From: a virus
Strand: one strand, 5' to 3'
Length of the DNA: 64,000 nucleotides
Virus genome (UHGV): UHGV-0132465
The notes under the pieces were generated by a model. The model saw only the letters and a program-made list of their open reading frames with translations. It ran no database searches and was not told the DNA's origin. Positions within the stretch are counted from its first letter, which is position 1; every line of letters starts with the position of its first letter. Below are positions 6,976 through 50,979 of the stretch, one piece after another. The translations under genes were made by a program, and so were the position numbers.

Positions 6976-6988
6976 CCTCAAAAACGTA

Positions 6989-7017: not shown

Positions 7018-7057
7018 GCACCCATTCGAAAGAAAACGAACACAGGAGCACTTAATC

Positions 7058-14874: not shown

Positions 14875-16244
14875 TGGAAAAAGGGCAGTACGATGTAGGC
14901 ACAGATGCTGCCCTTGTTGCAATCATGAGTGGTGAGAATGTCTTCGTAAGCGGACCTGGTGGGACCGGGAAGACATATCTTATCAACATGATCCAGTCCA
15001 TGTATGGAGACTCTTGCATAACGGTTGCCCCGACAGGGGTAGCCGCTTTAAACGTTAATGGAGCAACAGCTCACCGAACTTTCGATCTTGCCGCAGGTGT
15101 GAGCATGGAGTCAGACTGGACAGCGATAAGGGCAAAAACAGCAAAGCCTCTGAAAAGCAAGGCATTTACCATTCTAATTATCGATGAAATCTCTATGATC
15201 CGTGCTGACAAGTTCATAGAGATGGATAGAAAACTCCGCTTTCTTCGGAAAAATGACAAACCTTTCGGAGGCATTCAGGTGCTATTGTTTGGAGATTTCT
15301 ACCAAGCACCTCCAGTTGTCTCTTCCATGGAGAAGGAAGCCTACTTCAACTTCTACCACACAGACCTGTGTTGCTATACAGAATCCTGGGAGGATCTTAA
15401 TCTTCACAACATAGCCTTAGTAGACCAGTTCCGTCAGGAATCTGTTCGCTTCGCCACAATGTTGAACTGTGTTCGTGAAGGCCGTCGCATAAAAGAGGTT
15501 GTGGCAGAGCTTAACACCCGTTGCTATCATGGTGGTGTCCCAACAGATGCCTTGACCATCTGTGCCACCAATAAGCAAGCAGAGGAGGTGAACAGACGTT
15601 TCTATGATGCCATCAAGGCCCCAGAGAGGACCTACATTGGTAAAATGAAAGGTAAGTTCCCTTCCACACTGCCTGTGGAGCAGGAAATGAGGCTGAAGAT
15701 AGGTATGAAGGTTATGATAACCTCAAACGATGTTGACCCTACTCATAAAGTTCCGTATTATGTCAACGGGACACGTGCCACAGTGGTAAAATTCAAGACC
15801 AAATCCGTGGTAGTTGAGCTAGAAGACGGAACACAGGTTGAAATTGAGCCGAGATTGTGGGAGAATAACGAGTACAAACCTTCCCAGAGGTACAATATTG
15901 CCGAAAGGAAGATGGAGAAGTTTATAGAGAGGGTTGTGATCGGATCTTATGAGCAACTTCCTTTGAAATCTGGGTACGCAGTAACATCGCATAAAAGTCA
16001 AGGACTTACGTTAGATTGTTACAACCTAGACCTCGGAAAGAACGGAGCTTTCTCTCCCGGAATGACGTATGTTGCCTTGAGTCGGGTTAAGACGATACAA
16101 GGAATAAACTTGTTGCGTCCATTAAGAGAGGTGGATATTATTGTTGACCCGAGAGTCGTAGAGTTTTATAATACAACTTTCCCTGGCTTAGACGAGAAAG
16201 TCAGGAAAGATTTTGAAACTAGAGCAGAAAAGGGGGACGTATGA
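14874..16244 (+). CDS. dda: Dda/RecD/Pif1-like SF1 DNA helicase
   Basis: Walker A SGPGGTGKTY, APTGVAA, Walker B IIDEISMI, VTSHKSQGLTLD and YVALSRVKT motifs. Confidence 0.85.
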   Translation: MEKGQYDVGTDAALVAIMSGENVFVSGPGGTGKTYLINMIQSMYGDSCITVAPTGVAALNVNGATAHRTFDLAAGVSMESDWTAIRAKTAKPLKSKAFTILIIDEISMIRADKFIEMDRKLRFLRKNDKPFGGIQVLLFGDFYQAPPVVSSMEKEAYFNFYHTDLCCYTESWEDLNLHNIALVDQFRQESVRFATMLNCVREGRRIKEVVAELNTRCYHGGVPTDALTICATNKQAEEVNRRFYDAIKAPERTYIGKMKGKFPSTLPVEQEMRLKIGMKVMITSNDVDPTHKVPYYVNGTRATVVKFKTKSVVVELEDGTQVEIEPRLWENNEYKPSQRYNIAERKMEKFIERVVIGSYEQLPLKSGYAVTSHKSQGLTLDCYNLDLGKNGAFSPGMTYVALSRVKTIQGINLLRPLREVDIIVDPRVVEFYNTTFPGLDEKVRKDFETRAEKGDV

Positions 16245-16579
16245 GTTTGTGGAGAAATATAGTTAACTACGTGTGCGGTAATCCAAATCCTGAAGAGAAG
16301 GATGTTGTGATTCACGATTTTACTAAAAGATCTCGTGAAAAAGACCTCCTGCTAACAAAGGTGATCGATAAAGACCCTATAGGGGACTGGGCAGGGTTTG
16401 CGTTTACATCTGACAAATACACCTTTAACAAAGGTGACTACCTTGTTGTGGATTTTAACGAAGACATCGAGGGTGCTGAACCTTACTATCAGACCCTTAT
16501 CGTTGCAGAGTGTGTTGAGCTCTCTGCAAACATGCATAGTTTGATTCTTTTTGAGCTTGACTCTGAAGACCTTGAGTAG
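16241..16579 (+). CDS. hypothetical protein (112 aa)
   Basis: ORF overlapping upstream stop. Confidence 0.5.
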   Translation: MSLWRNIVNYVCGNPNPEEKDVVIHDFTKRSREKDLLLTKVIDKDPIGDWAGFAFTSDKYTFNKGDYLVVDFNEDIEGAEPYYQTLIVAECVELSANMHSLILFELDSEDLE

Positions 16580-16639
16580 TAAGATGTGAGTCTAAAGGGG
16601 AGGAGTTCCTCCCCACAAAAACTAAGGAAGCACTAAACG

Positions 16640-32541: not shown

Positions 32542-32712
32542 ATGAAAGGTAAAAATAAAAAAGATATCTCAATGAACTGCAAGGATATTAATGCAAAACG
32601 TGAAAAAGCGGCCCGTGATGCCCTGGTCAACTGGTTGGACTATGAAAAAAGGATGGTTGAAGCTGCAGGAGCTGCCGCCGGAGCTTTTTACCCTAAAAAT
32701 AATTTAAGATAG
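32542..32712 (+). CDS. small basic protein (56 aa)
   Basis: ATG after GAGGAGG RBS; first gene of the small-gene array. Confidence 0.45.
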   Translation: MKGKNKKDISMNCKDINAKREKAARDALVNWLDYEKRMVEAAGAAAGAFYPKNNLR

Positions 32713-32801
32713 CTATTGACAACGTGGCGAGTAACCTGGTATTCTTATCCACAAGATGAACAACACCGCTACACCATGCAGCTAACAGAGAGGAAAACAG
32801 C

Positions 32802-32999
32802 ATGAACGCATACGGCATTAAAGTACGTCGCAATATTCGCCAGGTGGTCACCGATCAAATGGTTTGCCGGGTGGATGTAACCATCAACAATGGGCAAGGT
32901 CTTTATAAATTCCGTCGCGGTCAGAGCTATACCCGGCAACAGCTTAATCGTTGCGCCCTGACAAAAGGACAGATCAACCACTGGTTTAATAAAAAATAA
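32802..32999 (+). CDS. hypothetical protein (65 aa)
   Basis: own promoter-like element and RBS. Confidence 0.5.
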   Translation: MNAYGIKVRRNIRQVVTDQMVCRVDVTINNGQGLYKFRRGQSYTRQQLNRCALTKGQINHWFNKK

Positions 33000-33003
33000 G
33001 TAT

Positions 33004-33032
33004 TGACATATAGTCCGACACCAAATACACTA
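33004..33032 (+). promoter_or_regulatory. sigma70-like promoter (TTGACA-17-TACACT)
   Basis: consensus -35 and spacing upstream of 33064. Confidence 0.55.
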
Positions 33033-33063
33033 AAAGCACAAAAGACACTGAGAGGATAAAATC

Positions 33064-33462
33064 ATGAAAACCACTACCTTTAATTTTGATAATGCGGACT
33101 TTTCTTTTTCTGATGTCAAGAACTGCCGTCGTGATCGTGGATTTTACAAGGCTTATAATCTGGTGGGCCTGGACGATGACAATAATTTGCACGAAGTAGC
33201 TGAGATCCGGTATTATGCCGCCGCCAGCGGGAACACTCAATACTGCGTTTTTTGGATTCACGACAACAAGAACAATAAGTACGGTTATACTGGCGGGAAG
33301 GCGAGCGGTCACGGTTACGATAAAGCTAATGCAGCACTTGAGAGCGCATTAAATGCTATGGGGATCACTGCCAACGGCTGGATCTATGAAGAAGAGTTTT
33401 TGTCGGCACTTGCTAACCACCTGGGCTATAAAAAGCACATTGTAACATGCGCCCACGAATAA
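33064..33462 (+). CDS. hypothetical protein (132 aa)
   Basis: ORF with GAGAGG RBS. Confidence 0.5.
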   Translation: MKTTTFNFDNADFSFSDVKNCRRDRGFYKAYNLVGLDDDNNLHEVAEIRYYAAASGNTQYCVFWIHDNKNNKYGYTGGKASGHGYDKANAALESALNAMGITANGWIYEEEFLSALANHLGYKKHIVTCAHE

Positions 33463-33468
33463 AAATTG

Positions 33469-33497
33469 TTGACACGCTGCAAAATTCAAGTAAACTA
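33469..33497 (+). promoter_or_regulatory. sigma70-like promoter (TTGACA, -10 TAAACT)
   Basis: consensus -35; -10 resembles the one inside the 45-bp repeated element. Confidence 0.5.
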
Positions 33498-33506
33498 ATC
33501 ACAAAA

Positions 33507-33525
33507 GGCGGGAAACATTCCCGCC
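33507..33525 (+). promoter_or_regulatory. 5'-UTR stem-loop GGCGGGAAACATTCCCGCC
   Basis: perfect 7-bp GC stem between promoter and RBS; near-identical copy at 36060. Confidence 0.6.
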
Positions 33526-33544
33526 AACACAAAGGAAAAAGATC

Positions 33545-33949
33545 ATGAATAAGAACGTACGCCGCATCATGAACGAGCTGGCAAACGATGAAAAAATTAT
33601 TGACATGCATTTGATCAACATTTGCCGCCGTTGTGTAACATATAACAACCGCGCCGCAAAAGCGCGTGAGATGAACGCAAAAGGCACCTTAAAGCCCTTC
33701 CAGGTGGTGGTAAAGGCCATTAAAGATGTAACTAATACGGCAAACCAGGTACAGGGGAACACCAACGAGAGTACCAGTATTGATCCGGCTTACATCATGA
33801 AACGGATCCGGACCTGCAAGAACAAAGAGCAAGTGTATAACGTCATAGACTGGTTGGATTCCATGGGCGACGTGGTGTACAATAGGTTTTCTGCAGCTAT
33901 CGAGATCCAGCTTGACAGGTTGGACGGGAAAGTACTGAAAACTTACTAA
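33545..33949 (+). CDS. hypothetical protein (134 aa)
   Basis: ORF with AAAGGAAAAAG RBS. Confidence 0.5.
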   Translation: MNKNVRRIMNELANDEKIIDMHLINICRRCVTYNNRAAKAREMNAKGTLKPFQVVVKAIKDVTNTANQVQGNTNESTSIDPAYIMKRIRTCKNKEQVYNVIDWLDSMGDVVYNRFSAAIEIQLDRLDGKVLKTY

Positions 33950-33951
33950 GT

Positions 33952-33996
33952 TTATTTTTAGATGGCCTTGACTCCAGGGCCATCAATAAAGTAAAC
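33952..33996 (+). repeat. 45-bp conserved intergenic element, copy 1 (TTATTTTTAGATGGCCTTGAYTCCAGGGCCATCAATAAAGTAAA)
   Basis: contains inverted repeat GATGGCC/GGCCATC and promoter-like TTGAYT ... TAAACT; copies at 34582 and 38318. Confidence 0.7.
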
Positions 33997-34029
33997 TAAT
34001 CTCAGTTAAGCGAAAAAGGGGGCTTTAAG

Positions 34030-34149
34030 ATGAGCACTACACGCCAATACACAAAGGTAACTATTATCGTTTGCGTTGTCGGTTACATCCTGGCGCAAAT
34101 GTTAATGAGTAGCGCTAACAGTTTTGCAAAATTTTTCTTAAATTTTTAA
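34030..34149 (+). CDS. small hydrophobic peptide (39 aa)
   Basis: RBS-preceded ATG; predicted single transmembrane segment; below ORF-track cutoff. Confidence 0.35.
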   Translation: MSTTRQYTKVTIIVCVVGYILAQMLMSSANSFAKFFLNF

Positions 34150-34176
34150 TTGACAAGCTAACTTAGATTGATATAC
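34149..34176 (+). promoter_or_regulatory. sigma70-like promoter (TTGACA-16-TATACT)
   Basis: consensus hexamers upstream of 34229. Confidence 0.55.
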
Positions 34177-34228
34177 TTAAACACGTAAACGGGAAAACTT
34201 CCCAGAACACACAAAAGGAGAAAACATT

Positions 34229-34579
34229 ATGAATACTTCCATCACTATGACCGCCGAAGAAAAAGCCCTGCAGATCGCCGCTCTGAAAAAACAGATTGCA
34301 GAACTTGAAGACAAGATCGACAATTTTGAAATCGACGAAGACAAATACGACGATAAATATGATGAATGGCTAGACGAAATCTATGGCGAAATTATGATCG
34401 GTTGTATCTCTTTTCTTCCGTCGCATATCCTCAAAGAGCTAGATCCTATCGCTTACCGCTGTGGCTTTAGTGATTATATTGATAGCCTAGATATTGAAGA
34501 TGACGAAGACTATCAGGAATTGCAAGCGGAGCTTGAAGAAGTGAAAGAAGAGCTTGCAGAACTGGAAGAAAACGAGTAA
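34229..34579 (+). CDS. acidic hypothetical protein (116 aa)
   Basis: ORF with AAGGAGAAAA RBS; Asp/Glu-rich. Confidence 0.5.
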   Translation: MNTSITMTAEEKALQIAALKKQIAELEDKIDNFEIDEDKYDDKYDEWLDEIYGEIMIGCISFLPSHILKELDPIAYRCGFSDYIDSLDIEDDEDYQELQAELEEVKEELAELEENE

Positions 34580-34581
34580 GC

Positions 34582-34626
34582 TTATTTTTAGATGGCCTTG
34601 ATTCCAGGGCCATCAATAAAGTAAAC
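34582..34626 (+). repeat. 45-bp conserved intergenic element, copy 2
   Basis: near-identical to 33952-33996. Confidence 0.7.
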
Positions 34627-34668
34627 TTTACACTGTTAACACTGAACTAATACAGAGGAGTTAAAACC

Positions 34669-34914
34669 ATGGCCGCACTAATTACCAAATATTATGCCCC
34701 TACCAACACCAAAAGCGCCCGTATCATGGTAAAAGGCTTCGGACGTAAAAAGGTTTACACCTGGGATTATTCCCTAGACATGGAAGACAACTACACCAAC
34801 GCAATGACCGATTTTATTAATGATCTGAATAAACAGATCTTGACCGACTACAAAGTGACCGATATTGCCTACGTCGGGGAAGGCGGGATCTGTTTTGTAG
34901 GCATTGTGAAATAG
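34669..34914 (+). CDS. hypothetical protein (81 aa)
   Basis: ORF with GAGGAG RBS. Confidence 0.5.
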   Translation: MAALITKYYAPTNTKSARIMVKGFGRKKVYTWDYSLDMEDNYTNAMTDFINDLNKQILTDYKVTDIAYVGEGGICFVGIVK

Positions 34915-34989
34915 TTATTTTTTCGGTGGTCCTGGCTGCAGGGCCATCTATAAAGATAATTTATTAACACCATGAAAGGAGAAAGTAAC

Positions 34990-35343
34990 ATGATCAGCGG
35001 TGCAAGTTTTATCATTGGCGCTATTGCTACGGCTTTAATTGTAAACAAGATCCAATCCAAAAACGAAAAAGAGAGCAACGCCTTTACAGAATACCCATTT
35101 TGGGTATTCAACGACAACGAAGACTATATAATCAAGTACAAGGATGAGAAGGGCGACCAGGTAACACCACGACCGATCCCGGCTTACAAGATGCAAGAAA
35201 CACTATACCGCCTAAAGGCTGGAGGCGCAAAAATCGTAGACTTTTGGGGATATGATTGCAAGGATCAGGAGGTTATAAAACGGCGTATCCGTGCGATTCA
35301 GGCAAATATTGAAATCAGTAAAGGGGGAAGTTATGAAAATTAA
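34990..35343 (+). CDS. hypothetical membrane protein (about 117 aa)
   Basis: start at ATG after AAAGGAG; N-terminal hydrophobic segment. Confidence 0.5.
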   Translation: MISGASFIIGAIATALIVNKIQSKNEKESNAFTEYPFWVFNDNEDYIIKYKDEKGDQVTPRPIPAYKMQETLYRLKAGGAKIVDFWGYDCKDQEVIKRRIRAIQANIEISKGGSYEN

Positions 35344-35530
35344 TTTCGAAAAAATTGTAAAGCGCCCTCATGATTCCGAAGAGTTGCCGAAACGCCGCCA
35401 GCGTAACAATAAACTGAATAAGCCAAAAAGGTTTGGGAAGATCTGGCGGAATCACTATGATCGCAAATTACCGGGCCTGCTTTTGGAACGTGAACGACAG
35501 GCAGAACGATACCGCCATAAAGACAAATAA
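35333..35530 (+). CDS. small basic protein (65 aa)
   Basis: ATG after AAGGGGGAAG RBS; Arg/Lys-rich. Confidence 0.45.
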   Translation: MKINFEKIVKRPHDSEELPKRRQRNNKLNKPKRFGKIWRNHYDRKLPGLLLERERQAERYRHKDK

Positions 35531-35538
35531 CAACCAAC

Positions 35539-35566
35539 GCCCCGCCATTGTGCGGGGCTTTTTATT
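35539..35566 (+). terminator. intrinsic terminator (GCCCCGC-CATTGT-GCGGGGC + T-run)
   Basis: 7-bp GC stem followed by TTTTTA. Confidence 0.65.
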
Positions 35567-35711
35567 TCTATCCCGCCGATAGCGCCCCTGGTTGGCCCCA
35601 CAAGCCCCCTAAAAGCCCCTACCTATGCAATCCCCTTTCTTAACCTGAAAACAGCGCCCAGGGCCGTTTTATGGCGTTAAAAATATTATTGACAGTGATT
35701 TTATTTAAAGC

Positions 35712-35739
35712 TTGACATCTTAAACAGGTTAGATATACT
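35712..35739 (+). promoter_or_regulatory. sigma70-like promoter (TTGACA-16-TATACT)
   Basis: consensus hexamers upstream of 35772. Confidence 0.55.
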
Positions 35740-35771
35740 AACCACATCAAAGAGAGAAAGGAGTAAACGCC

Positions 35772-36032
35772 ATGCGTAAATTAAAAAATTTTGATAAGGT
35801 TGATGTTGTCCTGAATAATTTTTACTACTGCAACAACAAGGCCATTTGGTGGCGTGATAGTTCCACCGATAAAGTCAAGGCGCGCTTTCTCCAGGGGCAC
35901 TGGCAAGGCCGCCCAGTGATTAAAATCATGGGGCAATTGGCAGCGTTTAAAAATTGCCGCCGTGTTGATGACGTTGAAGAGATTTTAAACATTTTGCGCC
36001 ACAATAATTTAAAAAATAGCGTTGACAAGTAA
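35772..36032 (+). CDS. hypothetical protein (86 aa)
   Basis: ORF with AAAGGAG RBS. Confidence 0.5.
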   Translation: MRKLKNFDKVDVVLNNFYYCNNKAIWWRDSSTDKVKARFLQGHWQGRPVIKIMGQLAAFKNCRRVDDVEEILNILRHNNLKNSVDK

Positions 36033-36049
36033 ATCTAGATAAGTATACT
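36022..36049 (+). promoter_or_regulatory. sigma70-like promoter (TTGACA-16-TATACT)
   Basis: consensus hexamers upstream of 36107. Confidence 0.55.
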
Positions 36050-36059
36050 TAAACACACA

Positions 36060-36078
36060 GGCGGGAAAACTTCCCGCC
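36060..36078 (+). promoter_or_regulatory. 5'-UTR stem-loop GGCGGGAAAACTTCCCGCC
   Basis: perfect 7-bp GC stem about 10 nt after the -10 element; paralogous to 33507. Confidence 0.6.
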
Positions 36079-36106
36079 ACTAACAAAGAAAATAGGAGAA
36101 AATATC

Positions 36107-36730
36107 ATGACCACCGTTAACATTACCACAGGTTACAATTTATCTTTCGACGTGCTGACCGATGAACAAAAAGAAAAAGCTATTGAAATGGTCCGCGAAA
36201 GAGAAGAACACAGCGGGGATAACTTTTTTGCAGAAAGTGTAATTGAAGACTATAAAGAATATATCTTTCCAGAGTATGGCCTTGAAGATACCAAGGTACA
36301 TTGGTCCGGCTTTTGGTGCCAGGGTGACGGCGCGTCAATCAGTGCGGAAAACGTGGATTTAGAAAAATTCTTGCGTAAAGTCAAGTCTCTGACTAAATTC
36401 CGCTCAATTCGTCACTTGTTCGGCACAATGCACGATGGCGAGCTATCCGCAAGTGTTGAGCGTGATCCATATAGCCGCTATAGTCACGAAAACACTGTAA
36501 GCGGGTACATCGATACTACATGGCTAGACCTGACAGCCAAGCAAGAAAGTAAGGTTGAAGAGCTGGAAGAGTTGATCACCGAGACGGTGCGGGAGCTATC
36601 CCGCAAGGTTTACGTAGACCTGGAGCAAGCTTATCTTGAACAATTTACTACCGAAAACCTGATCGGCCTTATCGAGGCCAATGATTGGCGGTTTGATGTG
36701 GATGAATATGGCGAGATGACTTTTTCATAA
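36107..36730 (+). CDS. hypothetical protein (207 aa)
   Basis: ORF with AGGAGAAAA RBS. Confidence 0.55.
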   Translation: MTTVNITTGYNLSFDVLTDEQKEKAIEMVREREEHSGDNFFAESVIEDYKEYIFPEYGLEDTKVHWSGFWCQGDGASISAENVDLEKFLRKVKSLTKFRSIRHLFGTMHDGELSASVERDPYSRYSHENTVSGYIDTTWLDLTAKQESKVEELEELITETVRELSRKVYVDLEQAYLEQFTTENLIGLIEANDWRFDVDEYGEMTFS

Positions 36731-36818
36731 ATAAAGTGTTGCAATAACCTAAAAACCTGCTATATTAAAACTCAAGGGGCAAGACGTTTGCCCCACACAA
36801 AACAAAGAGGAAAACATT

Positions 36819-37199
36819 ATGAAAAGCACCACTAAAGCCATTGACACCGTTATGTTTAACCTGGTTACCTTTCGTGAGGATATGAAAGATCTTCCACGTG
36901 AAACAGTGTGCGATCACATCGAAAACTATCGCAAACTGATCAAACAACTGCCTTTAAAACGTGACCAATATGCGGCTAACGCTATGCTTAACGCCATGAT
37001 CAAAAAGATGATCCAGTGTGATTTAACTCTGGCCTATGATTATGCAGGCGGTCGTTTTGCAGTATACAATCAGCCCGTGCCCGGTATGAGCACCACTGAA
37101 GAATTGCACGCGTTAAATCTAAAACAAGATGTATGGGATAGCATGCCCCGCGTGGTGGTGTGGGCAGAAAGCGGAAAGATTTACGGCGATAATTTTTAA
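36819..37199 (+). CDS. hypothetical protein (126 aa)
   Basis: ORF with AAGAGGAAAA RBS; upstream UTR hairpin GGGGCAAGACGTTTGCCCC. Confidence 0.5.
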   Translation: MKSTTKAIDTVMFNLVTFREDMKDLPRETVCDHIENYRKLIKQLPLKRDQYAANAMLNAMIKKMIQCDLTLAYDYAGGRFAVYNQPVPGMSTTEELHALNLKQDVWDSMPRVVVWAESGKIYGDNF

Positions 37200-37266
37200 T
37201 CAGGTAACAGGCGGCGGCATATTTGCCGCCTTATTGTTAAGCAGAATTGTAAGAGAGGTACACAGA

Positions 37267-37638
37267 ATGGAATTTATTATTTTGGCTGTATTAGTTGCCT
37301 TGTTCAACGCCTGGATAGCTGGCAAAACAGGTAGATCCGCTTTTCTATGGTTTGTTATATCTATTTTCCTGGGAGTGGTTGCAACCATTGTATTAGTTAT
37401 CCTTGCAATTGTTGACAAGGATAATAATAAGAAAGGTAAAGTATTTTCCGACCTGTATGACGCTCAAACTTTTGTTAACGCCTATTATAGTGATCTTCCG
37501 GTCTCCTTGCGCTGCAGCCTAGCGCAACAAGTTTTCGATGAAGCTAAAACCAGAGAACAGGCCCATGAAATATGTCTAACCGAGGCAGATCGCCTATTCG
37601 AGAGGAATAGAAAATATGTGGACCAGCCGTTTAAATAA
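37267..37638 (+). CDS. hypothetical membrane protein (123 aa)
   Basis: start at ATG after GAGAGG; two predicted transmembrane segments. Confidence 0.5.
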   Translation: MEFIILAVLVALFNAWIAGKTGRSAFLWFVISIFLGVVATIVLVILAIVDKDNNKKGKVFSDLYDAQTFVNAYYSDLPVSLRCSLAQQVFDEAKTREQAHEICLTEADRLFERNRKYVDQPFK

Positions 37639-38113
37639 TGCCACGTTAATTAATCCCTTTAGTGAAGATTTGAAGCCAGCGGCCTGGCGTGAGGGATTCA
37701 ACACAGAAAGATTTATTTTCAGGCCTGACCTTGAGGAATTTTATAACAATGGATCGAACAACGACAGAGATAATTTTTCTTGTAATGTGCGTGGTGATAA
37801 TACTCCTGGGGGCCATTACAAACCACGTCACTGCTAACAGGAGGAAAGGGGGAGACGATGACAACCAAGGATAAGCCCCGCACCGATAAGGTGCGCCGTG
37901 TTATGGTATGGCTTGAGATCATCGCCCTTGAAATATTGTTAGGCGTAGGGATGTACTTTATCGCTGTAAGTAACTGATAACGGCCCCCAATCCCTGGGGG
38001 CTTAACTTTTTCAAAAATTTTTCTTCTAGGGTGTTGCAATCCGGTCCGGAATATGGATAATAACAATCAACGGGGAGCAATCCCCACCACAAAGACTAGA
38101 AAGGAGAAACAAA

Positions 38114-38314
38114 ATGAGTAACAATATCCGCGTTATTAACTTCAAAAAAGAAGAAAAAATTGCCGTGCTGATTGACGGTCAAGAAATCTTTAAAGGTGAT
38201 TATGAAGATCATCAAACGGCGATTAGTATCACTCGCGTGATTGGTTACCATAATTTTTACCCTCAAGGCGCTGAGGCAGCAGTAAAACGAATTAAAGAGA
38301 TTGTAGGCCTGTAA
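38114..38314 (+). CDS. hypothetical protein (66 aa)
   Basis: ORF with AAAGGAGAAA RBS; upstream UTR hairpin GGGGAGCAATCCCC. Confidence 0.5.
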   Translation: MSNNIRVINFKKEEKIAVLIDGQEIFKGDYEDHQTAISITRVIGYHNFYPQGAEAAVKRIKEIVGL

Positions 38315-38317
38315 AAT

Positions 38318-38361
38318 TTATTTTTAGATGGCCTTGATTCCAGGGCCATCAATAAAGTAAA
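38318..38361 (+). repeat. 45-bp conserved intergenic element, copy 3
   Basis: near-identical to 33952-33996. Confidence 0.7.
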
Positions 38362-38399
38362 TTTAAACCCTGTTAAAATAATCAGTGCAAAAAGGAGTA

Positions 38400-38717
38400 A
38401 TGATCATGTTTATCCAGGCTAATAATCTTTATTTCTTTGATGGTCAGATCGTAGACGGCGTGGAGGTGGAAATCACTGGGTGCCCTGGCGGTCAGGTTAT
38501 GACTTTTCGGAATAATGCCTTTGATGATTCTCATATCGTTATGAGAATGGAAGTTAGTAAGCTGGATGATAAGAAAACATTGATTGACTATTCCGTCAAA
38601 GATCATCCAGACTACCACATGATCTATGGTGATTTGTGCATTGTTGACCGTGACAAGGTGAACGGCATTGTTATAGCCATTGTGAACGATGTTTTCTCTG
38701 AGTATTCCGGCAAATGA
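38400..38717 (+). CDS. hypothetical protein (about 105 aa)
   Basis: ATG after AAAGGAG; exact start (38400 or 38406) uncertain. Confidence 0.5.
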   Translation: MIMFIQANNLYFFDGQIVDGVEVEITGCPGGQVMTFRNNAFDDSHIVMRMEVSKLDDKKTLIDYSVKDHPDYHMIYGDLCIVDRDKVNGIVIAIVNDVFSEYSGK

Positions 38718-38928
38718 TGCAAAATAAGGCCCCTGGCAGGGCCTGCAGCGATATAATCACATAAAGGCTATGCGGTTGCATGGCCTTTATTATTTTAGCG
38801 TTACAGCTGCCCCCAAGGCGCTTAAAAAATTTTTAAAGAAGTACTTGCATCAAGCCCCACAATATGGATAATAAGAGTTGTCGAGGGGGCTATGCCTCCA
38901 ATCATTAACAGAAACAGGAGTTAAAACT

Positions 38929-39213
38929 ATGGCTATTGTTACCGCTGGCGATGTAGTAGAAATGGAAGCAAAATACTTAAAAGCGGGTATGCATATCCTA
39001 CGGAATGATCAAGAGTTATTATTAACGATGGTCGACTATAATCCCGGCCAGGATTATCCAAGCATCGACTACTTTTTTGAGTATGTTGATGAAGAGTTGA
39101 AAGAGGATGAGGCCTATTGCGGTGAGTTCTGCAACTTCTTTTGTCCTGATGAGGTTGTAAAGGTTATTTATCAACCTGGCGTAGCTTTCCCGCTGCACGC
39201 TATCAATAAATAA
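38929..39213 (+). CDS. hypothetical protein (94 aa)
   Basis: start at ATG after ACAGGAG RBS. Confidence 0.5.
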   Translation: MAIVTAGDVVEMEAKYLKAGMHILRNDQELLLTMVDYNPGQDYPSIDYFFEYVDEELKEDEAYCGEFCNFFCPDEVVKVIYQPGVAFPLHAINK

Positions 39214-39268
39214 ACCTGGCGGGGCCGAAAAGGCCCCCAATTATGAAAATAAAGATAGGTTAATCATC

Positions 39269-39502
39269 ATGATGGAACAAATTAAACGCGCCGAGGCTAT
39301 TAATGGCAATGTGATCTATTCTGTCAGCAAAAACGAAAAAGGCGTACCATATGCGGCGGTAATAGTACAGCCTGACGGCGATTATTGGCTTACTGTGTAC
39401 GGCGCGTATTCTTTCGGTCGTCCAGTGCATGATAAAATTTTGAAAGTAGCTAACCCTACGGGGAAGAATATCACGGCAGAAAAATTTTTTGAAAATAATT
39501 GA
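39269..39502 (+). CDS. hypothetical protein (77 aa)
   Basis: ORF in co-oriented block. Confidence 0.45.
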   Translation: MMEQIKRAEAINGNVIYSVSKNEKGVPYAAVIVQPDGDYWLTVYGAYSFGRPVHDKILKVANPTGKNITAEKFFENN

Positions 39503-39574
39503 CATGACCGCCTGAAAGTGTAGTATATAAATCAAAGGGCAAGCCCCGCCAACCACAAAGAGGATAAAAAAATC

Positions 39575-39754
39575 ATGGCTATTATTGCAAAGACCGAGAT
39601 TGCAGGTTTAGATTCTATTCTCCTGGCATATGAGGAAGCTATAGAAATGTATGTGGTTTCCTATGGTGAGTATATCCGTGAATATACATCTATTGATCTG
39701 GCTTTTGAATGTTATATCCGCCAGGTAAATAAAGCATATGATGATTATCGTTAA
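39575..39754 (+). CDS. small protein (59 aa)
   Basis: own TTGACA promoter, UTR hairpin and AGAGGA RBS; below ORF-track cutoff. Confidence 0.4.
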   Translation: MAIIAKTEIAGLDSILLAYEEAIEMYVVSYGEYIREYTSIDLAFECYIRQVNKAYDDYR

Positions 39755-39845
39755 AATAGTTTGACAACAAACAACTATCTAACAAAGCATAATACATAAG
39801 GTGGTAGAATGATCCGCCACCTGGAACAAAGAAGAGGTAAACACC

Positions 39846-40091
39846 ATGAAAAGCAATAAAGGTTATAACGGTCACAAAAACAAAACTCATTGGAATGTAA
39901 GCCTTTGGATTAATAACGATGAATCATTATACTTATACGCTGTAGGCTTAATAAATGAGTGCGGCAATAAAGATAAAGCGGCGGATCTAATGTGCTACAG
40001 ATTAAAACAGGACGGAATCACTCATACACCTGATGGTTTCAAGTATAGTAAAACTGCAATCCGTGCCGCTATGGTAGGAATGAAACACTAA
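39846..40091 (+). CDS. hypothetical protein (81 aa)
   Basis: ORF with AGAGG RBS; upstream UTR hairpin. Confidence 0.5.
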   Translation: MKSNKGYNGHKNKTHWNVSLWINNDESLYLYAVGLINECGNKDKAADLMCYRLKQDGITHTPDGFKYSKTAIRAAMVGMKH

Positions 40092-40165
40092 AAGCACATA
40101 GCCGCCTTACCCTGGGGCTGTGGTAGCGGCCCCATGAATAAGGTTACTAACAAAGAATAGAAAAC

Positions 40166-40270
40166 ATGAAACAGAAATTAATTGATGCGGTAATCCTGGT
40201 TATTGCCCTGGGTATTGGCCTGATTGCAACCATGGCTAATATGATCTTGTCTTCCAACGGTATCGGATAA
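40166..40270 (+). CDS. small hydrophobic peptide (34 aa)
   Basis: RBS-like purine tract; predicted single transmembrane helix. Confidence 0.3.
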   Translation: MKQKLIDAVILVIALGIGLIATMANMILSSNGIG

Positions 40271-40279
40271 GGTGGGCAA

Positions 40280-40495
40280 ATGATCACCAACAAAACAGGC
40301 AAAACAGAATTTTTACGCAACTTGCAGATCGGCAAGCCCGAGATCTGGTATTGCACTAAAACACCACGTGACGAAATGAAAGACTTCACCGCCACGCTGC
40401 AACGGGTAAAGATATCTATCACGCAGAAAAAAGCCTTGATAGTGGTTGAAGGTGAGATCCCTCAAGCCGTTGTTATAATTGAGCGTACAGCATAG
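40280..40495 (+). CDS. hypothetical protein (71 aa)
   Basis: ATG after AAGGTGGG RBS. Confidence 0.45.
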   Translation: MITNKTGKTEFLRNLQIGKPEIWYCTKTPRDEMKDFTATLQRVKISITQKKALIVVEGEIPQAVVIIERTA

Positions 40496-40586
40496 TTTAA
40501 TTTATACAGATACCCGAAAATTAACCAACAAAGCATAAACAGGCGGTTACCGCCGCCTTAAACGTAGCAGAAAGAGGATAGACAAC

Positions 40587-40871
40587 ATGAAAAAGATGAT
40601 CGCAGTGGTTGCCCTGGTTGTTGGACTTAATGCGCCTGTAATGGCTAAAGAGCTGGCAAAAGAGGTTGATCTAACGGATATCCATGCCGTCAATCAAATC
40701 GGGGTTACTTATCGCTTATGCCTTGCCGCTAAAACTTTTAATGACGGTACAACAGAGTACTACGGATTCGAGGGTATCCGGTGCGGTGAGCTTGCTCGCG
40801 ACCTTAAGGAAGATCCAGACCTGGAGGATCTGCCCATCACCGTAAACGGTAAAGCTTACGTAAACCGTTAA
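40587..40871 (+). CDS. secreted hypothetical protein (94 aa)
   Basis: signal-peptide-like N terminus MKKMIAVVALVVGLNAPVMA; AGAGGA RBS. Confidence 0.5.
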   Translation: MKKMIAVVALVVGLNAPVMAKELAKEVDLTDIHAVNQIGVTYRLCLAAKTFNDGTTEYYGFEGIRCGELARDLKEDPDLEDLPITVNGKAYVNR

Positions 40872-40873
40872 CC

Positions 40874-41008
40874 ATGAGAAAGATGATCATCACCTTGGGG
40901 ATTGTGGCGGGATTGCTGGCGCTCTTTCCCCTTATGGTTAGGTATGTGCTGATCAGTGTTGTCCTGGTAGTCAGCGATCTAATGTTATATATTAACTCAT
41001 TGTTTTAG
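40874..41008 (+). CDS. small hydrophobic peptide (44 aa)
   Basis: immediately follows upstream stop; two hydrophobic stretches. Confidence 0.3.
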   Translation: MRKMIITLGIVAGLLALFPLMVRYVLISVVLVVSDLMLYINSLF

Positions 41009-41016
41009 GTGGAATA

Positions 41017-41208
41017 ATGACAGCAGAAGAAGTTAAAAAAGTACTGGCAGTACTACGTTACCATAATCATTGTAAGGTGAAGAATGATCCTGATTATCTC
41101 GATTCATCCCTTGAAGAGGATACACTACAAGCCATAAGTAACATGCAAGAATTGCTAAAGCGCATGACAGAGAAAAACCGACCGGACTACATAGGCGAAA
41201 AAATATAA
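41017..41208 (+). CDS. hypothetical protein (63 aa)
   Basis: ATG after AGGTGGAA RBS. Confidence 0.45.
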   Translation: MTAEEVKKVLAVLRYHNHCKVKNDPDYLDSSLEEDTLQAISNMQELLKRMTEKNRPDYIGEKI

Positions 41209-41419
41209 TCCTTATTGACTAGAAAACAGGGCTTGCAATGGTCCTGTTTTTTGTTATACTTATTCCACGGCAGGCACCTGGCGACGGGGGGAGACAATCA
41301 CCGGGCCTGCCTGTCATATAAGAACTATAAAAACCGTTGACATCTGCCAGGGGGTGGGGTAACATTTATCTTGAAGGGGCAAAAGTGCCCACACAACAAC
41401 CAGAAGAGAGGAAAACATT

Positions 41420-41692
41420 ATGTCAAGCTGGATTAATCAAGAAGTCGAATCACGTTTTAATGCTATCTGGGATCTCGTAGAAAAAGAGGACGGAACATCA
41501 AGCCCCTACCTCAACAATTTGGAATTCCATTTTGTGGAAGCGATGAACGCAGAACATGATCACGAAGGTGGCGCGGATGAGTTCGCTAAAGGTTATGGCT
41601 TTAACAATGCCAACGAAATGATCGAGTCGGTTGTACTCCAAGCCGAGGAAGATTATCAATTAAAAACGCTTGAATTCTGCCGCCGCAAGTAA
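41420..41692 (+). CDS. hypothetical protein (90 aa)
   Basis: own TTGACA promoter, UTR hairpin GGGGCAAAAGTGCCC, AGAGAGG RBS. Confidence 0.5.
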   Translation: MSSWINQEVESRFNAIWDLVEKEDGTSSPYLNNLEFHFVEAMNAEHDHEGGADEFAKGYGFNNANEMIESVVLQAEEDYQLKTLEFCRRK

Positions 41693-41752
41693 TAAGATAA
41701 TGACAAGGGCCGAAAGGCCCACTAATCAGAACCGCACAAAGAGGAAAACATC

Positions 41753-42016
41753 ATGAAACGTCTTGATCAGCTCAAATTAGTTCAATATATGGCTTATCGT
41801 GTTCTTGAAGTACAGAAAGGCAGCAAAAAAGAAGTTTGCGAGAAAGCGTACAAGATCTTTACTCGCAAAAAAGACGATTGGATGTTACGCCAGACTAAAA
41901 AGGCTGACATCTTGGGGTACCTGGAAGAAGAGATCCGGCTTGAAGAACAAGAAGAGATCCGCCGTAGTGAGGCAGATTATCAGGCAGCTTGGGAAAACTG
42001 GATGAGCAACAAATAA
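41753..42016 (+). CDS. hypothetical protein (87 aa)
   Basis: UTR hairpin GGGCCGAAAGGCCC then AGAGGAAAA RBS. Confidence 0.5.
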   Translation: MKRLDQLKLVQYMAYRVLEVQKGSKKEVCEKAYKIFTRKKDDWMLRQTKKADILGYLEEEIRLEEQEEIRRSEADYQAAWENWMSNK

Positions 42017-42158
42017 TACAACAAGTTACATGGTCAGGGGCAATAAAGCCCCTTGATCACACAAAAATTATGCTATCCTTGTTGACAGAGATCGGCAGTT
42101 TTGCTATATTCTTTTTGAAGGGCAGTTGTAAGAAAATTAACTAAGAGGTAAAAACACC

Positions 42159-42578
42159 ATGAACATTAAATCTGATAATCCGGCATATAGCTTTGATAAC
42201 GCTTTTTGTCACGGTCCGGCGGCGAAAGGATTCGAAATCGATGGTAAACTAATTATTGTCAATGTTGACGGGGAAGAGGTTGCAGTATATCCGGTGGCAG
42301 ACGTTAAAAGCCGTCTACAATGCCGCATCGATGTTACCGCCTACCAGCTTGATCCGGTCCGGGTAGTTGCCCTGGTCCTGGAAGAAGAAATTAAAGCAAT
42401 GCACCACAGCAACAAGTTTATTGGTGACGCTCAAGATAATATGCAGGTATGCCGCTATAAAGTTAATGAAGTGCTTAAAGAGTACGGCTATAAGGATTTA
42501 ATGATCAAGCGTGATGAAAAATTCCGCTACCGTAACGACCTGGCAAATCGGATTTTTGAAATATACGAATCATTATAA
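42159..42578 (+). CDS. hypothetical protein (139 aa)
   Basis: ORF with AGAGG RBS; last gene of plus-strand array. Confidence 0.5.
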   Translation: MNIKSDNPAYSFDNAFCHGPAAKGFEIDGKLIIVNVDGEEVAVYPVADVKSRLQCRIDVTAYQLDPVRVVALVLEEEIKAMHHSNKFIGDAQDNMQVCRYKVNEVLKEYGYKDLMIKRDEKFRYRNDLANRIFEIYESL

Positions 42579-42596
42579 TTTCTTAACTGAATTATC

Positions 42597-42623
42597 AAGG
42601 GGCTTAAAGGCCCCTTTCTTTTT
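42597..42623 (+). terminator. intrinsic terminator (AAGGGGC-TTAAA-GGCCCCTT + TCTTTTT)
   Basis: GC hairpin and T-run after last plus-strand gene. Confidence 0.7.
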
Positions 42624-43208
42624 GTCTGCTCTTCTCCTACCATAAACGGCCCTACCTGGCAAGTGGAATAATTGACTAGCCATCAATCCCACACACTGTA
42701 TAAATATACATGGAAAATAACTATTGCATAATTTTTCATTGTGTGGTAGCAAGGCCATTTTTACCCGTTTTCTCTCCCAAAATTGCACGTAATGCCGCTA
42801 TTGCACAAAATTTAACCTGATGCACATCTTCAACATCTTGTCAATAACTAAAAATCTTTATAAGTCATACACTTACACAACCATAAAGCCGTGTTCTACG
42901 TGAAAAATCGAGTATAACTATAGCCGCCAGATCTCAGAATTTACGTACGTTCACCATTCTATAGCCTGCAAAGTATTTATTCCAACCACAGAATAACGGA
43001 ATAGTCAATACCTGCATAAAATAATTATTCGTGTAAACTGCATAACATAAATCAGCTCAGGTGTCAACATTTTTCGTAAGCAGTTCGAAATTGTCACGAT
43101 AAGTTATTATACACAAAGAAATCTTTAGTCGTCTAATGGTTACTATACATTACTAATCTGACTGGAATCATTAGATGACTAAGAGAAAGATAAGAAATAA
43201 TTAATAAT

Positions 43209-43518
43209 GTAATTGTTTTACCTGTAACAATAAGGCAACTATGCAAACGAATGGCATGGCGCGACGGAGTCGCGACATAATATAAAAGCAGTAACCATCA
43301 CCCCCGTGATAGTTTTTCTGCAATCTATTACTCAGATCATAGTTGCCTTGTATTTAGTTAATCATGACATAACAAGCAAGGCAACTATAGATCTTCTAAT
43401 AGTTGCCCTGCTTTTATATTATGTCATAGAAACGCCCGAAGGGGTGACCTAGTCACCTGGCATAGCCAGCGAAAGATTATTATCTTGTTAATTGTTTTCA
43501 TGCAAACGAATGTCATGG
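43209..43518. repeat. cluster of palindromes and iteron-like repeats (AAGGCAACTAT / ATAGTTGCC x4; GCAAACGAATGNCATGGC x2; GGTGAC-cta-GTCACC)
   Basis: multiple direct and inverted copies within 300 bp of an ORF-poor region between convergent gene blocks. Confidence 0.6.
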
Positions 43519-44268
43519 CTTATCATCTATGCGTGAACTATCCAGGCGTAAACAGTCTATGCGGGAACAATCTATACGGGAACAGTGAGGCATGCAATAG
43601 TAACAACTGTTATTGTATCCGGTGTGTTGAGTATGCCCGGTGTGTCACTATTATGTCACATTATGTCAGACAAGTTTTTCTCCTCTTTGTCAAGTGCTGC
43701 ATGAAAAATTTACAAACTGGTATGGTAGCATTTTTGCGGCCCTGTTTACATTCAGAAATGTATGTATAATCCTTGGTGTGTGGGCGTTTAGACGTCTGGA
43801 CGGTCAGAAGTCCGCAGGTCAATATCTAATCTATTGGTTGCTAACTATATCCCACACAAATAGTAAGAAATATAATTGTTATGTGCGTAAACAGTAACCC
43901 ATGTTATCAATCCCTGTATGTATCGCCAGTGGTGCGCATAATGGGTATTATGTTAAATTGCCCGTAATGATAACTATTCTCACAATGATAGGTATTCTCA
44001 TTCATCCCCACAAGATAGATTGCAAATGTTGTGCCACTGTGTGAACGGCCTGGTCTATTAATTTGCCTCACTGCCTCGATATTTGAGAATTATTATAAAA
44101 ATGAGAAGTATTCCCATTCCGTCCGCCTGGCAGCACTCCTGTAGGACAAGCACAAAATCGGGGCATAACTGACCTGTTCAGATATTTCTGGCTGACTCTT
44201 CAGGTCTGTGTGGGAAAAGCCAACCTCTCCGGCGGCGGGGTAGGGGTCAATTAAAAAATTTATGCGGT

Positions 44269-50897: not shown

Positions 50898-50979
50898 AAC
50901 GTGTTCCTTTTAAAGAAGAGGGAACCAAACCCTCTTTGAAAACAATGATACTAAATCTGAAGCGTTGTGTCAACAGTTT

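Follow-up and report, generated by a model that had tools for sequence, protein, structure and literature searches.

PeSL-like early-gene cassettes with a predicted transcribed hairpin in an rV5-like phage of Escherichia coli

Promoter-early stem-loop (PeSL) cassettes have been described in the T4-like phages RB49/phi1, T4/PST and KVP40/nt-1 (Arbiol et al. 2010, PMC2839356; Comeau et al. 2014, PMC4122927). Their definition recognizes five subclasses of stem-loop position, one of which is 'downstream of -10' (PMC2839356, PMC4122927). PeSL stem-loops are also reported to reduce transcription downstream, and elements on either side of a gene to recombine into mini-circles. PeSLs outside the T4-likes are not described in the searchable literature. 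Here we analyzed a stretch of 64,000 nucleotides (nt) of the virus genome UHGV-0132465, hereafter the window, and within it an array of small + strand genes whose intergenic regions carry promoter-like sites and GC-rich hairpins. This array is a set of PeSL-like early-gene cassettes in which the hairpin is predicted to be transcribed, and it is not a categorically new system. An earlier reading of the same sequence (the original prediction) described the architecture and missed that the PeSL is an existing name for it. With slightly better than even confidence, we interpret each cassette as a PeSL-like unit with its own promoter, in which the hairpin would serve as an RNA stability 'bookend' and the leader would double as recombination homology.

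The window represents a Vequintavirus, an rV5-like phage of E. coli, at about 92% identity. The 9.9 kb region studied matched 294 phage records, and the top full-length matches were Vequintavirus genomes with 91-94% identity (rV5, FFH2, navn, Murica, FV3 and others). In rV5, the counterpart of the array runs from ORF196 to ORF164 (ORF, open reading frame) and forms the distal part of the long early unit '10-1-238-164'. The rV5 paper treats genes 164-238 as a single early unit with sigma70-type promoters, and the rV5 record annotates six 'Sigma70-type promoters' and two terminators in the counterpart segment. GC skew placed the + strand genes between about 8 kb and about 44 kb of the window. 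The coding fraction of the array was 0.77, with a usual intergenic gap of 60-91 nt. Only two of the 29 array products passed Pfam thresholds (Phage_1_1, T7 gp1.1-like, at 35333 and DUF7249 at 39846). The other 27 had no Pfam family when all 29 proteins were run, which agrees with the earlier statement that almost all products lack recognizable domains. As no function is recognizable in these proteins, the host-takeover role proposed originally is a conjecture. About 25 monocistronic small genes had been predicted. We counted 29, of 34-207 amino acids (aa), but they were not all monocistronic: at least ten have no promoter of their own and either overlap or abut the preceding gene or lie behind a promoter-less hairpin, thus falling into polycistronic groups (35333, 37267, 37616, 37858, 39269, 40166, 40280, 40587, 40874 and 41017). 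Rfam covariance models gave no match at gathering score in the whole window, and no tRNA or tmRNA was found by scanning.

Sigma70-like sites scoring at least 10/12 were found 11 times on the + strand of the array and never on its - strand, compared with 1.81 ± 1.41 (maximum 6) in dinucleotide shuffles. Nine of these 11 sites ended 33-58 nt ahead of an ATG. Twelve genes had a promoter of at least 9/12 within 60 nt. Sites of 8/12 preceded a further five to six genes, four of these sites lying inside a 46-nt palindromic element (class II, see below). In total, a promoter-like site stood before 17-18 of the 29 genes, so the claim that nearly every gene is preceded by a promoter was not borne out. 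The DNA upstream of the -35 boxes was AT-rich and the intergenic regions were short, as in the promoters of PeSL cassettes.

The intergenic elements of the array were of four kinds: class I modules, class II elements, canonical terminators and promoter-less hairpins. A class I module comprises a promoter, about 10 AT-rich nt, a GC hairpin of 5-8 base pairs (bp) and an open, A/C-rich leader. Such hairpins were found 6-13 nt past the -10 before ten genes (33545, 34229, 36107, 36819, 38114, 38929, 39575, 39846, 41420 and 41753), where at least nine had been noted originally. The hairpins quoted in the original prediction were present at the quoted places, and CACAAAGAGGAAAACATCATG was found verbatim before gene 41753, but the hairpin at 33507 reads GGCGGGAAACATTCCCGCC and does not contain ...AAAACTT... 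as quoted. A strict composite was defined as a promoter of at least 8/12, a hairpin of at least 5 bp and a Shine-Dalgarno (SD) sequence with ATG within 35 nt. It occurred eight times on the + strand and was absent from the - strand, whereas 200 shuffles gave a mean of 0.095 and a maximum of 2 (about 80-fold enrichment). Hairpins of any context were also in excess (30 in the region vs 9.3 ± 2.7 in shuffles). The hairpin was present in the minimum free energy fold of nine of the ten modules. If transcription starts about 7 nt past the -10, the predicted unpaired 5′ tail would be 2-6 nt, and the SD-AUG region was predicted to be 46-81% unpaired.

For conservation, the upstream regions of orthologous genes were taken from 13 Vequintavirus loci. 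In ten modules of these 13 genomes, column variability was 0.08 in the -35, 0.15 in the SD, 0.18 in the -10 and 0.23 in the stem, and it rose to 0.29 in both the initial region and the leader, 0.36 in the spacer and 0.57 in the loop. This profile is what would be expected of real promoters and ribosome sites combined with a structure-constrained hairpin. With the -35, -10 and SD as the least variable columns, and with the rV5 early unit 164-238, the idea of a sigma70-driven early region held up. The presence of hairpins in homologous regions of related phages, proposed earlier as a check, was confirmed: they were kept in nearly all distinct orthologous sequences, though the sequence itself changed. 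Among the 13 related genomes, stems get replaced, loops vary and whole hairpins invert. For example, the 38885 hairpin had 11 different sequences in 11 loci, all of which fold, and one of its pairs varied among G.U, A-U and G-C. Four hairpins were exact reverse complements of their orthologs: 33507 (ACA vs TGT loop), 36776 (in FV3), 39221 (in locus L016) and 40541 (in FV3 and L018). The inverted loops among Vequintavirus hairpins were ACA/TGT, GACGT/ACGTC and GAAAA/TTTTC. Therefore, the whole palindrome can flip without penalty, and the sequence and orientation of the loop are immaterial in the Vequintavirus lineage. At the level of DNA, these inversions (33507-33525, 36776-36794, 39221-39237 and 40541-40558, compared with L001, L013, L016 and L018) are palindrome flips that leave the stem intact.

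The same module was frequent in phages that have individual genes in common with the array region. It was observed, its hairpin lying 9-14 nt past the -10, in Phapecoctavirus, Justusliebigvirus, Certrevirus and the jumbo Asteriusvirus. A scan of IMG/VR with gene 36819 gave only five loci, and the comparisons rest mainly on GenBank phage records. Among strong promoters, the module was present at 10/17 in Phapecoctavirus ESCO37, 11/25 in Justusliebigvirus VEcB, 7/19 in Asteriusvirus SP27 and 21/48 in three IMG/VR contigs. When 60 nt on either side of strong promoters were scanned in the window and four other phage groups, the hairpins started almost only 9-14 nt past the -10. Over all loci, 131 distinct instances had a modal gap of 10-11 nt from the -10 and a mean hairpin energy of -10.7 kcal/mol. 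Promoters with a hairpin favored a 16-nt spacer (35/49 vs 27/82, Fisher p = 3e-5), which suggests one module family and not convergence. In sum, the modules are non-random and conserved in position in at least five phage genera, while the sequence of the hairpin drifts, inverts or is replaced.

Several further features of these genera were noted. Loci L002, L004, L005, L008-L010 and L022 (Phapecoctavirus, Justusliebigvirus, Asteriusvirus and Certrevirus) share the initial sequence type GTATCACATAG, and a few hairpins recur verbatim many times per genome (GGCGGGAAATGGTTTCCCGCC at least five times in VEcB). In the Certrevirus Cronobacter phage PBES 02 (L022, 3197-14130), a GC stem-loop exactly fills the spacer between -35 and -10 (TTGACG-GGGGCCGGGTTAGGCCCC-CATAAT), as in RB49. 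This member of the Vequintavirinae mostly has the RB49 arrangement, and in five of its promoters the spacer hairpin is accompanied by a second one past the -10. In the loops of non-Vequintavirus hairpins, an oriented U(A/G)G was found in 21 of 37 distinct hairpins, compared with two in the flipped orientation. This bias hints at a strand-specific constraint in these genera.

Could the hairpins be functionless? They might be GC palindromes born of poly-G/poly-C slippage that hitch-hike with duplicated promoter modules. The lengths of the G- and C-runs do differ between close relatives (e.g. at 38885 and 36776), and the modules group into a few sequence families, which suggests duplication. However, nearly all orthologous hairpins still pair, whether they were replaced, inverted or altered on one side only, the position is constant in five genera with different stems, and the enrichment over shuffles is about 80-fold. 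We thus regard this explanation as extremely improbable.

The published interpretation of PeSLs assigns the stem-loop another role. As attenuators or terminators, the hairpins would damp RNA polymerase coming from upstream, and possibly that of their own strong promoter, so that small and potentially toxic genes are capped and insulated. One reporter experiment in RB49/phi1 stands behind this interpretation. It is also consistent with the promoter-less hairpins of the array, with the promoter-internal stem-loops of RB49 and PBES02, which can act only on upstream transcripts, and with the label 'terminator' that the Murica annotators gave to the class II elements. We nevertheless consider attenuation unlikely. 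The 8 nt past the hairpin contained 1.07 T on average, and only 3% of the 131 instances had five or more; genuine terminators with T-runs sit separately in the array. Because the U-tract is missing, the class I hairpin is not an intrinsic terminator, and that candidate was ruled out. Of the four promoters behind a canonical terminator, three (38034, 38845 and 41337) still have a hairpin, about 50-120 nt behind that terminator, where an attenuator would be redundant. Therefore, the hairpin is not there to stop upstream transcription. Besides, a terminator at +4 to +22 would cut short the transcript of its own cassette as well, and the double-hairpin cassettes of PBES02 suggest two distinct roles. 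The 'bookend' role is favored because promoter-less hairpins are conserved and most cassettes have no terminator between them.

Two other candidates were discarded. A lambda-type nut site (boxA/boxB) was ruled out, as the loops vary, the hairpins invert and no conserved boxA-like motif was seen in the leaders. N4-type DNA hairpin promoters were set aside by reasoning, since they depend on a virion RNA polymerase, for which no entry was seen in the rV5 annotation, and the hairpins lie downstream of good sigma70 promoters.

The order of the hairpin arms was strongly biased. The G-rich arm was 5′ and the C-rich arm 3′ in 61 vs 6 promoter-associated hairpins past the -10 and in 27 vs 4 inside promoters (all loci), whereas terminator-like hairpins had no such bias (26 vs 23). 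This polarity is uninformative on the strand, because it is the same on both strands.

The conserved initiation motif claimed originally was clearly recovered. Over positions -16 to -1, the initiation regions of the array held 15.4 bits, whereas three other gene sets taken from the window held 3.9-6.1 bits. The A+C content of the leader was 73-80%, compared with 52-55% elsewhere in the window, and the consensus was AAAGAGGAAAACAT(C/T)ATG. A common translational operator had been suggested as a possibility. With or without the hairpin, the leader might be bound by a phage-encoded RegA-type repressor or another RNA-binding regulator that shuts the early genes off jointly. Apart from the information content, the orientation bias of the U(A/G)G loops in related genera would fit a factor that recognizes the hairpin. 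We found no specific evidence for an operator, and we think it very improbable. No RegA-like or other RNA-binding protein was identified, and the motif is close to a strong SD followed by an A-rich spacer, as expected for efficient initiation. Leaders vary between genera while the architecture persists, and in the Vequintavirus lineage the loops are unconstrained and invert. In addition, it is within the uniform leader that inserted and deleted cassettes cross over (27-33 nt overlaps). Therefore, shared descent and recombination explain the uniformity at least as well as a translational operator does.

The modules mark recombination junctions. We compared the window pairwise with 13 relatives and found that gene-sized indels and replacements break in the intergenic modules. 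The indels were at 39860-40153, 41721-41747 (an insertion in rV5), 38698 and 41216, and a replacement covered 39504-40215. Two breakpoints had leader overlaps of 27-33 nt, and the junctions lay in the leader or at the SD/ATG. In rV5, the promoter and hairpin of the DUF7249 cassette drive the next gene directly. In rV5, L006 and L014, an extra gene is present before 41753, and a 27-nt leader, ACTAATCA...CACAAAGAGG, is found on both its sides. The replacement cassettes of FV3, EmilHeitz and L007 carry Phapecoctavirus-type modules (TTGACA-16-TAAGAT-GTATCACATA-GGGCGGCAATAGTGCCGCTC). Homology across subfamilies came in blocks of one gene each, which extend from 6-17 nt ahead of the ATG to the stop codon. 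For instance, 39566-39756 was 92.7% identical with VEcB and 39829-40085 93% with L008, compared with 71-80% for the adjacent genes.

These junctions raise the question whether hairpins and leaders act at the DNA level only, as recombination hot-spots, homology patches or sites for proteins or nucleases that mobilize cassettes, with RNA structure as a by-product. The inversions of whole hairpins, the breaks within repeated leaders, the recurrence of identical hairpins within a genome (GGCGGGAAATGGTTTCCCGCC in VEcB), the G-arm-first bias (61 vs 6, not seen in terminators at 26 vs 23) and the complete identity of three class II copies in 13 genomes are all compatible with such a role. However, the junctions were seen in the 27-33 nt leader and not in the hairpin, and a recombination site would not have to keep so constant a distance from the -10. 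Stable cruciforms would probably need arms longer than 5-8 bp. The free drift of loops and stems in Vequintavirus argues against sequence-specific recognition by a protein, and the oriented loop motif in relatives, together with the G.U pairs of the class II variant, points to a constraint on single strands, at the RNA level. A purely DNA-level role is thus distinctly unlikely in our view.

We return to the interpretation that combines an RNA 'bookend' with recombination homology. A typical cassette consists of an AT-rich stretch in which the gene before it ends, a promoter of the host sigma70 type (in many cases TTGACA-N16-TAnnnT), an initial region that is short and AT-rich, a hairpin and the leader. 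The hairpin, of 5-8 bp and about 10 nt past the -10, would begin at about +2 to +6 of the predicted transcript and be followed by an unstructured A/C-rich leader. Each cassette might fire from its own promoter right after infection. In its own mRNA, the near-terminal 5′ stem-loop would hinder RppH and the 5′-end-dependent action of RNase E. In RNA that reads through from an upstream cassette and is cleaved in the open leader, the same hairpin could be a 3′ stem-loop and stop 3′ exonucleases. Being open and A/C-rich, the leader might ensure uniformly strong translation, and the repeated leaders might provide the homology by which cassettes of one gene each are shuffled inside a phage lineage and from one lineage to another. 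Stabilization by 5′ structure is explained by the requirement of RppH and of the RNase E 5′ sensor for a single-stranded 5′ end (PMC3997798); therefore, the hairpin could shield the 5′ end of the mRNA. Judged from spacing and composition, a 5′ stem-loop that stabilizes mRNA is plausible and would fit both the fixed spacing and the missing U-tract.

A phage-encoded factor could supply a rationale for such protection. The best PHROG of ORF 5929-7110 (- strand) was 'HNH endonuclease' (3.5e-109), and 'decoy of host sigma70' (2e-12) and 'Srd anti-sigma factor' (1.6e-8) were also matched; the ORF had no Pfam hit. It is probably the ortholog of rV5 gp11, which the rV5 authors named an Srd homolog. 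Srd of T4 stimulates RNase E on host mRNA (PMC4980113). An Srd-like protein would thus offer a possible reason why hairpins should protect phage mRNA.

A number of observations weigh against the 'bookend' interpretation. We found no transcriptome or map of start sites for Vequintavirus, phi92-like, phAPEC8-like or PBECO4-like phages in the literature, and the 5′-terminal placement of the hairpin is predicted from its spacing to the -10. A 5′ tail of 3-4 nt is borderline for blocking RppH. The promoter-less hairpins (39221, about 40094-40131, 40541 and 42038) are conserved, even by inverting, so a function that does not depend on a 5′-terminal position must exist. In RB49 and in the Certrevirus PBES02, the equivalent stem-loop lies in the spacer or over the -10, outside the cassette's own transcript. 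Most strong promoters at 7-32 kb of the window have no hairpin. The PeSL authors reported that one stem-loop without an obvious U-tract cut downstream lacZ expression as much as rrnB T1. Finally, the stems had no strand asymmetry of G.U vs A.C (26 vs 22), although this test is uninformative because the stems are mostly perfect and the hairpins invert.

A broader version of this interpretation can be offered only tentatively. Large lytic coliphages of at least five genera (Vequintavirus, Certrevirus, Phapecoctavirus, Justusliebigvirus and Asteriusvirus) might share one standardized and exchangeable expression 'socket', whose components are a promoter, an open A/C-rich leader with SD and, between them, a 5′ hairpin fixed at +2 to +6. 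The hairpin might act as a cap-like 5′ shield under which early phage mRNAs outlive the action of the Srd-like protein, which would direct the RNase E of the host to host mRNA; its U(A/G)G loop might be read by a specific factor in Stephanstirmvirinae and Asteriusvirus, and genes might be swapped at the leader across subfamilies.

The remaining intergenic elements of the array were distinct from class I. Class II consists of a palindrome of 46 nt in two tiers, TTATTTTTAGATGGCCTTGAYTCCAGGGCCATCAATAAAGTAAAYT, of which three copies lie at 33950, 34583 and 38316; a fourth copy, at 34915, has diverged. The element has a -35-like TTGAYT in the loop and a -10-like TAAAYT at its 3′ end. The predicted fold (-19 to -24 kcal/mol, z = -4.8 to -6.95) is a two-tier helix of 9 + 10 bp with a 2x3 internal loop, about 19 bp in all. 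The three copies are 100% identical to each other and across 13 genomes in which the flanking genes differ by 5-10%. This identity points to concerted evolution or a very strong sequence constraint. As a separate observation, a palindrome at 42073-42092 surrounds the -35 of the promoter at 42082, and it has compensatory changes in relatives (ATCCTTG..CAAGGAT, ATCCCTG..CAGGGAT and ATCCCC..GGGGAT). Six terminators with T-runs, at 35539, 37209, 37982, 38761, 41220 and 42597, partition the array. Between two of these terminator-like hairpins (37209-38002) lie three membrane-like, promoter-less genes (37267, 37616 and 37858). To express them, RNA polymerase would have to pass the weak terminator at 37209. 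Hairpins with no recognizable promoter were those at 39221, about 40094-40131, 40541 and 42038. The coordinates of the features are listed in Table 1.

Table 1. Features of the early gene array and related modules in the window. Promoters are given as -35 box, spacer length and -10 box; the distance that follows is from the -10 to the hairpin.
Feature	Position	Strand	Remarks
Array of 29 small early genes, 34-207 aa	32542..42578	+	Orthologous to rV5 ORF196-ORF164
Promoter-like TTGACA-18-TATTCT	32716..32745	+	Before gene 32802; no strong hairpin
Promoter-like TTGACA-17-TACACT	33003..33031	+	Before gene 33064; no hairpin; P195A in rV5
Class I: TTGACA-16-TAAACT, 10 nt, hairpin GGCGGGAAACATTCCCGCC (33507-33525), ATG 33545	33469..33525	+	z = -5.3; inverted in most relatives
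Class II: 46-nt palindrome TTATTTTTAGATGGCCTTGACTCCAGGGCCATCAATAAAGTAAACT, -35-like TTGACT in loop	33950..33997	+	-23.6 kcal/mol, z = -6.95
Class I: TTGACA-16-TATACT, 13 nt, hairpin GGGAAAACTTCCC (34191-34203), ATG 34229	34150..34203	+	P192 in rV5
Class II, copy 2, TTGATT in loop, before gene 34669	34583..34627	+	
Class II variant before gene 34990	34915..34960	+	Two-tier fold held by G.U pairs; -35-like box lost
Canonical terminator GCCCCGCCATTGTGCGGGGC then TTTTTATTT	35539..35558	+	
Promoter TTGACA-16-TATACT	35712..35739	+	Before gene 35772; no hairpin; P186 in rV5
Class I: TTGACA-16-TATACT, 10 nt, hairpin GGCGGGAAAACTTCCCGCC (36060-36078), ATG 36107	36022..36078	+	
Class I: TTGCAA-16-TATATT (TG-extended), 9 nt, hairpin GGGGCAAGACGTTTGCCCC (36776-36794), ATG 36819	36739..36794	+	Inverted in FV3
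Terminator-like hairpin AGGCGGCGGCATATTTGCCGCCT then TATTGTT	37209..37231	+	Genes 37267, 37616 and 37858 follow with no promoter
Terminator GGCCCCCAATCCCTGGGGGCT then TAACTTTTTC	37982..38002	+	
Class I: TTGCAA-16-GATAAT, 10 nt, hairpin GGGGAGCAATCCCC (38072-38085), ATG 38114	38034..38085	+	
Class II, copy 3, before gene 38406	38316..38363	+	
Terminator ATAAAGGCTATGCGGTTGCATGGCCTTTAT then TATTTT	38761..38790	+	
Class I: TTGCAT-16-GATAAT, 12 nt, hairpin GGGGGCTATGCCTCC (38885-38899), ATG 38929	38845..38899	+	
Hairpin GGGGCCGAAAAGGCCCC, before gene 39269, no recognizable promoter	39221..39237	+	Inverted in L016; ESCO37 homolog has promoter + hairpin
Class I, hairpin degenerate in this phage: TTGACA-16-TAGTAT, GGGCAAGCCCC, ATG 39575	39499..39547	+	Relatives carry GGGGCAACAAGCCCC
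Module of gene 39846: TTGACA, 21-nt spacer, CATAAT, bulged hairpin GGTGGTAGAATGATCCGCCACC (39800-39821)	39761..39821	+	Spacer 17 nt in L017/L019
Single-gene cassette (DUF7249 gene)	39860..40153	+	Absent from rV5, L016 and L020; 33-nt junction overlap at SD/ATG leader
Hairpin AGGCGGTTACCGCCGCCT, before gene 40587, no promoter	40541..40558	+	Inverted in FV3 and L018
Terminator AAAACAGGGCTTGCAATGGTCCTGTTTTTTG	41220..41253	+	
Class I: TTGACA-17-TAACAT, 11 nt, hairpin GGGCAAAAGTGCCC (41377-41390), ATG 41420	41337..41390	+	P168 in rV5
Class I: TTGAAT-17-TAAGAT, 8 nt, hairpin GGGCCGAAAGGCCC (41707-41720), leader ACTAATCAGAACCGCACAAAGAGGAAAACATCATG	41670..41755	+	Gene inserted and leader duplicated in rV5, L006 and L014
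Promoter TTGACA-17-TATATT, TG-extended	42082..42110	+	Before gene 42159; P164 in rV5
Terminator AAGGGGCTTAAAGGCCCCTT then TCTTTTTG	42597..42616	+	End of array
Class I-type module outside array: TTGACC-17-TATAAT, 9 nt, hairpin 16182-16205	16144..16205	+	
Class I-type module outside array: TTGACT-17-TAAGAT, 11 nt, hairpin GGGGAGGAGTTCCTCCCC	16557..16614	+	
Class I-type module outside array: TTGACA-17-TATCAT, 8 nt, hairpin AAGAGGGTTTGGTTCCCTCTT	50916..50973	-	

Some observations were made around the array. Between the + strand early array and the - strand genes lies a stretch of about 2.4 kb (42620-45050, GC content 0.38) with no convincing ORFs, which corresponds to the box labelled 'non-coding' in the rV5 paper. 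At 43225-43416, copies of the motif ATAGTTGCC/GGCAACTAT recur in both orientations, and the stretch also has a perfect inverted repeat of 18 nt (43274/43408) and a direct repeat of 22 nt (44269/44304). This stretch may be an origin-like region. On the - strand, 4435-5916 encodes a protein of 493 aa in which a VWA-like DUF2201 domain accompanies DUF2201_N (putative metallopeptidase, 2.6e-28). Under the name 'Campylobacter phage' (C5, D#, A142, C3, C9, D1 and others), GenBank has about 20 records that are 91-93% identical to the array region, and they are probably mislabelled or contaminant rV5-like and phi92-like genomes.

If the proposed interpretation is true, the idea of a 'mobile regulatory cassette' would apply beyond the T4-likes, to therapeutic coliphages of several groups that are unrelated. 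It would also account for early regions that are mosaic and rich in ORFans and that differ between isolates otherwise 92-95% identical. The position of the hairpin in the predicted transcript turns a vague 'terminator/attenuator' label into a concrete and cheaply testable hypothesis of 5′-end protection, possibly tied to the manipulation of RNase E by the phage. The cassettes might serve synthetic biology as a natural library of compact, insulated expression units. For annotators, the implication is that these hairpins should not be called terminators, and the array indicates where the boundaries of early transcription units probably fall.

Several known systems resemble parts of this architecture. 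The T7 phi10 leader, a 5′-terminal stabilizing stem-loop, is comparable to the predicted 5′ hairpin of class I. In the T7 early operon, intercistronic 3′ stabilizers and RNase III sites protect mRNA ends, as do stem-loops of the repetitive extragenic palindromic (REP) type. Likewise, stem-loops between the cistrons of a read-through early transcript could define and protect mRNA ends here. However, the T7 early genes use three clustered promoters and not one per gene, and RNase III needs a longer duplex than the 5-8 bp of a class I hairpin. Sites of RNase III span about two turns of duplex RNA, often with an internal loop; the class II helix falls in this size class and might be cleaved, judging from its modelled fold. 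Rho-independent terminators share the GC-rich intergenic hairpin, and a simple scanner calls several on the - strand, but the hairpins here have no U-tract on the coding strand, begin with the G-rich arm and lie downstream of a promoter. The leader stem-loops of ompA and papA (cited in PMC3997798) similarly combine a short stable hairpin near the predicted 5′ end with an open leader and a strong SD. They differ in having mapped 5′ ends and half-lives, whereas here the 5′ ends are predicted, the module is repeated genome-wide and some copies are promoter-less.

PeSLs remain the closest match. Both combine AT-rich DNA with an early sigma70 promoter close to the consensus, a Gn-loop-Cn stem-loop and a conserved SD with ATG; both form dense arrays beside small ORFans in a plastic region; and in both, the elements form the boundaries where close relatives differ by indels or replacements. 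The class II element and the promoter at 42082, with a stem-loop over the -35, fit the RB49-type subclass that 'overlaps -35'. The papers on rV5 and Certrevirus do report sigma70-like promoters, and the hairpins are absent from them. With gene 41420, for which an RB49 homolog has been reported, RB49 was not among the 40 matches listed by tblastn. Two differences stand out, the second of which matters for the mechanism. The phages here belong to Vequintavirinae, Stephanstirmvirinae and Asteriusvirus instead of the T4-likes, and the stem-loop lies 9-14 nt past the -10, in the predicted 5′ untranslated region of the cassette itself. In the hyperplastic region of RB49, it lies in the spacer (offset -24) or over the -10 (-14 to -16), and past the -10 in only 1 of 15 cases; in the PeSLs of T4 and nt-1, it is upstream of the promoter. 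Apart from this position, all the structural and evolutionary hallmarks of PeSLs that we tested were found in this array.

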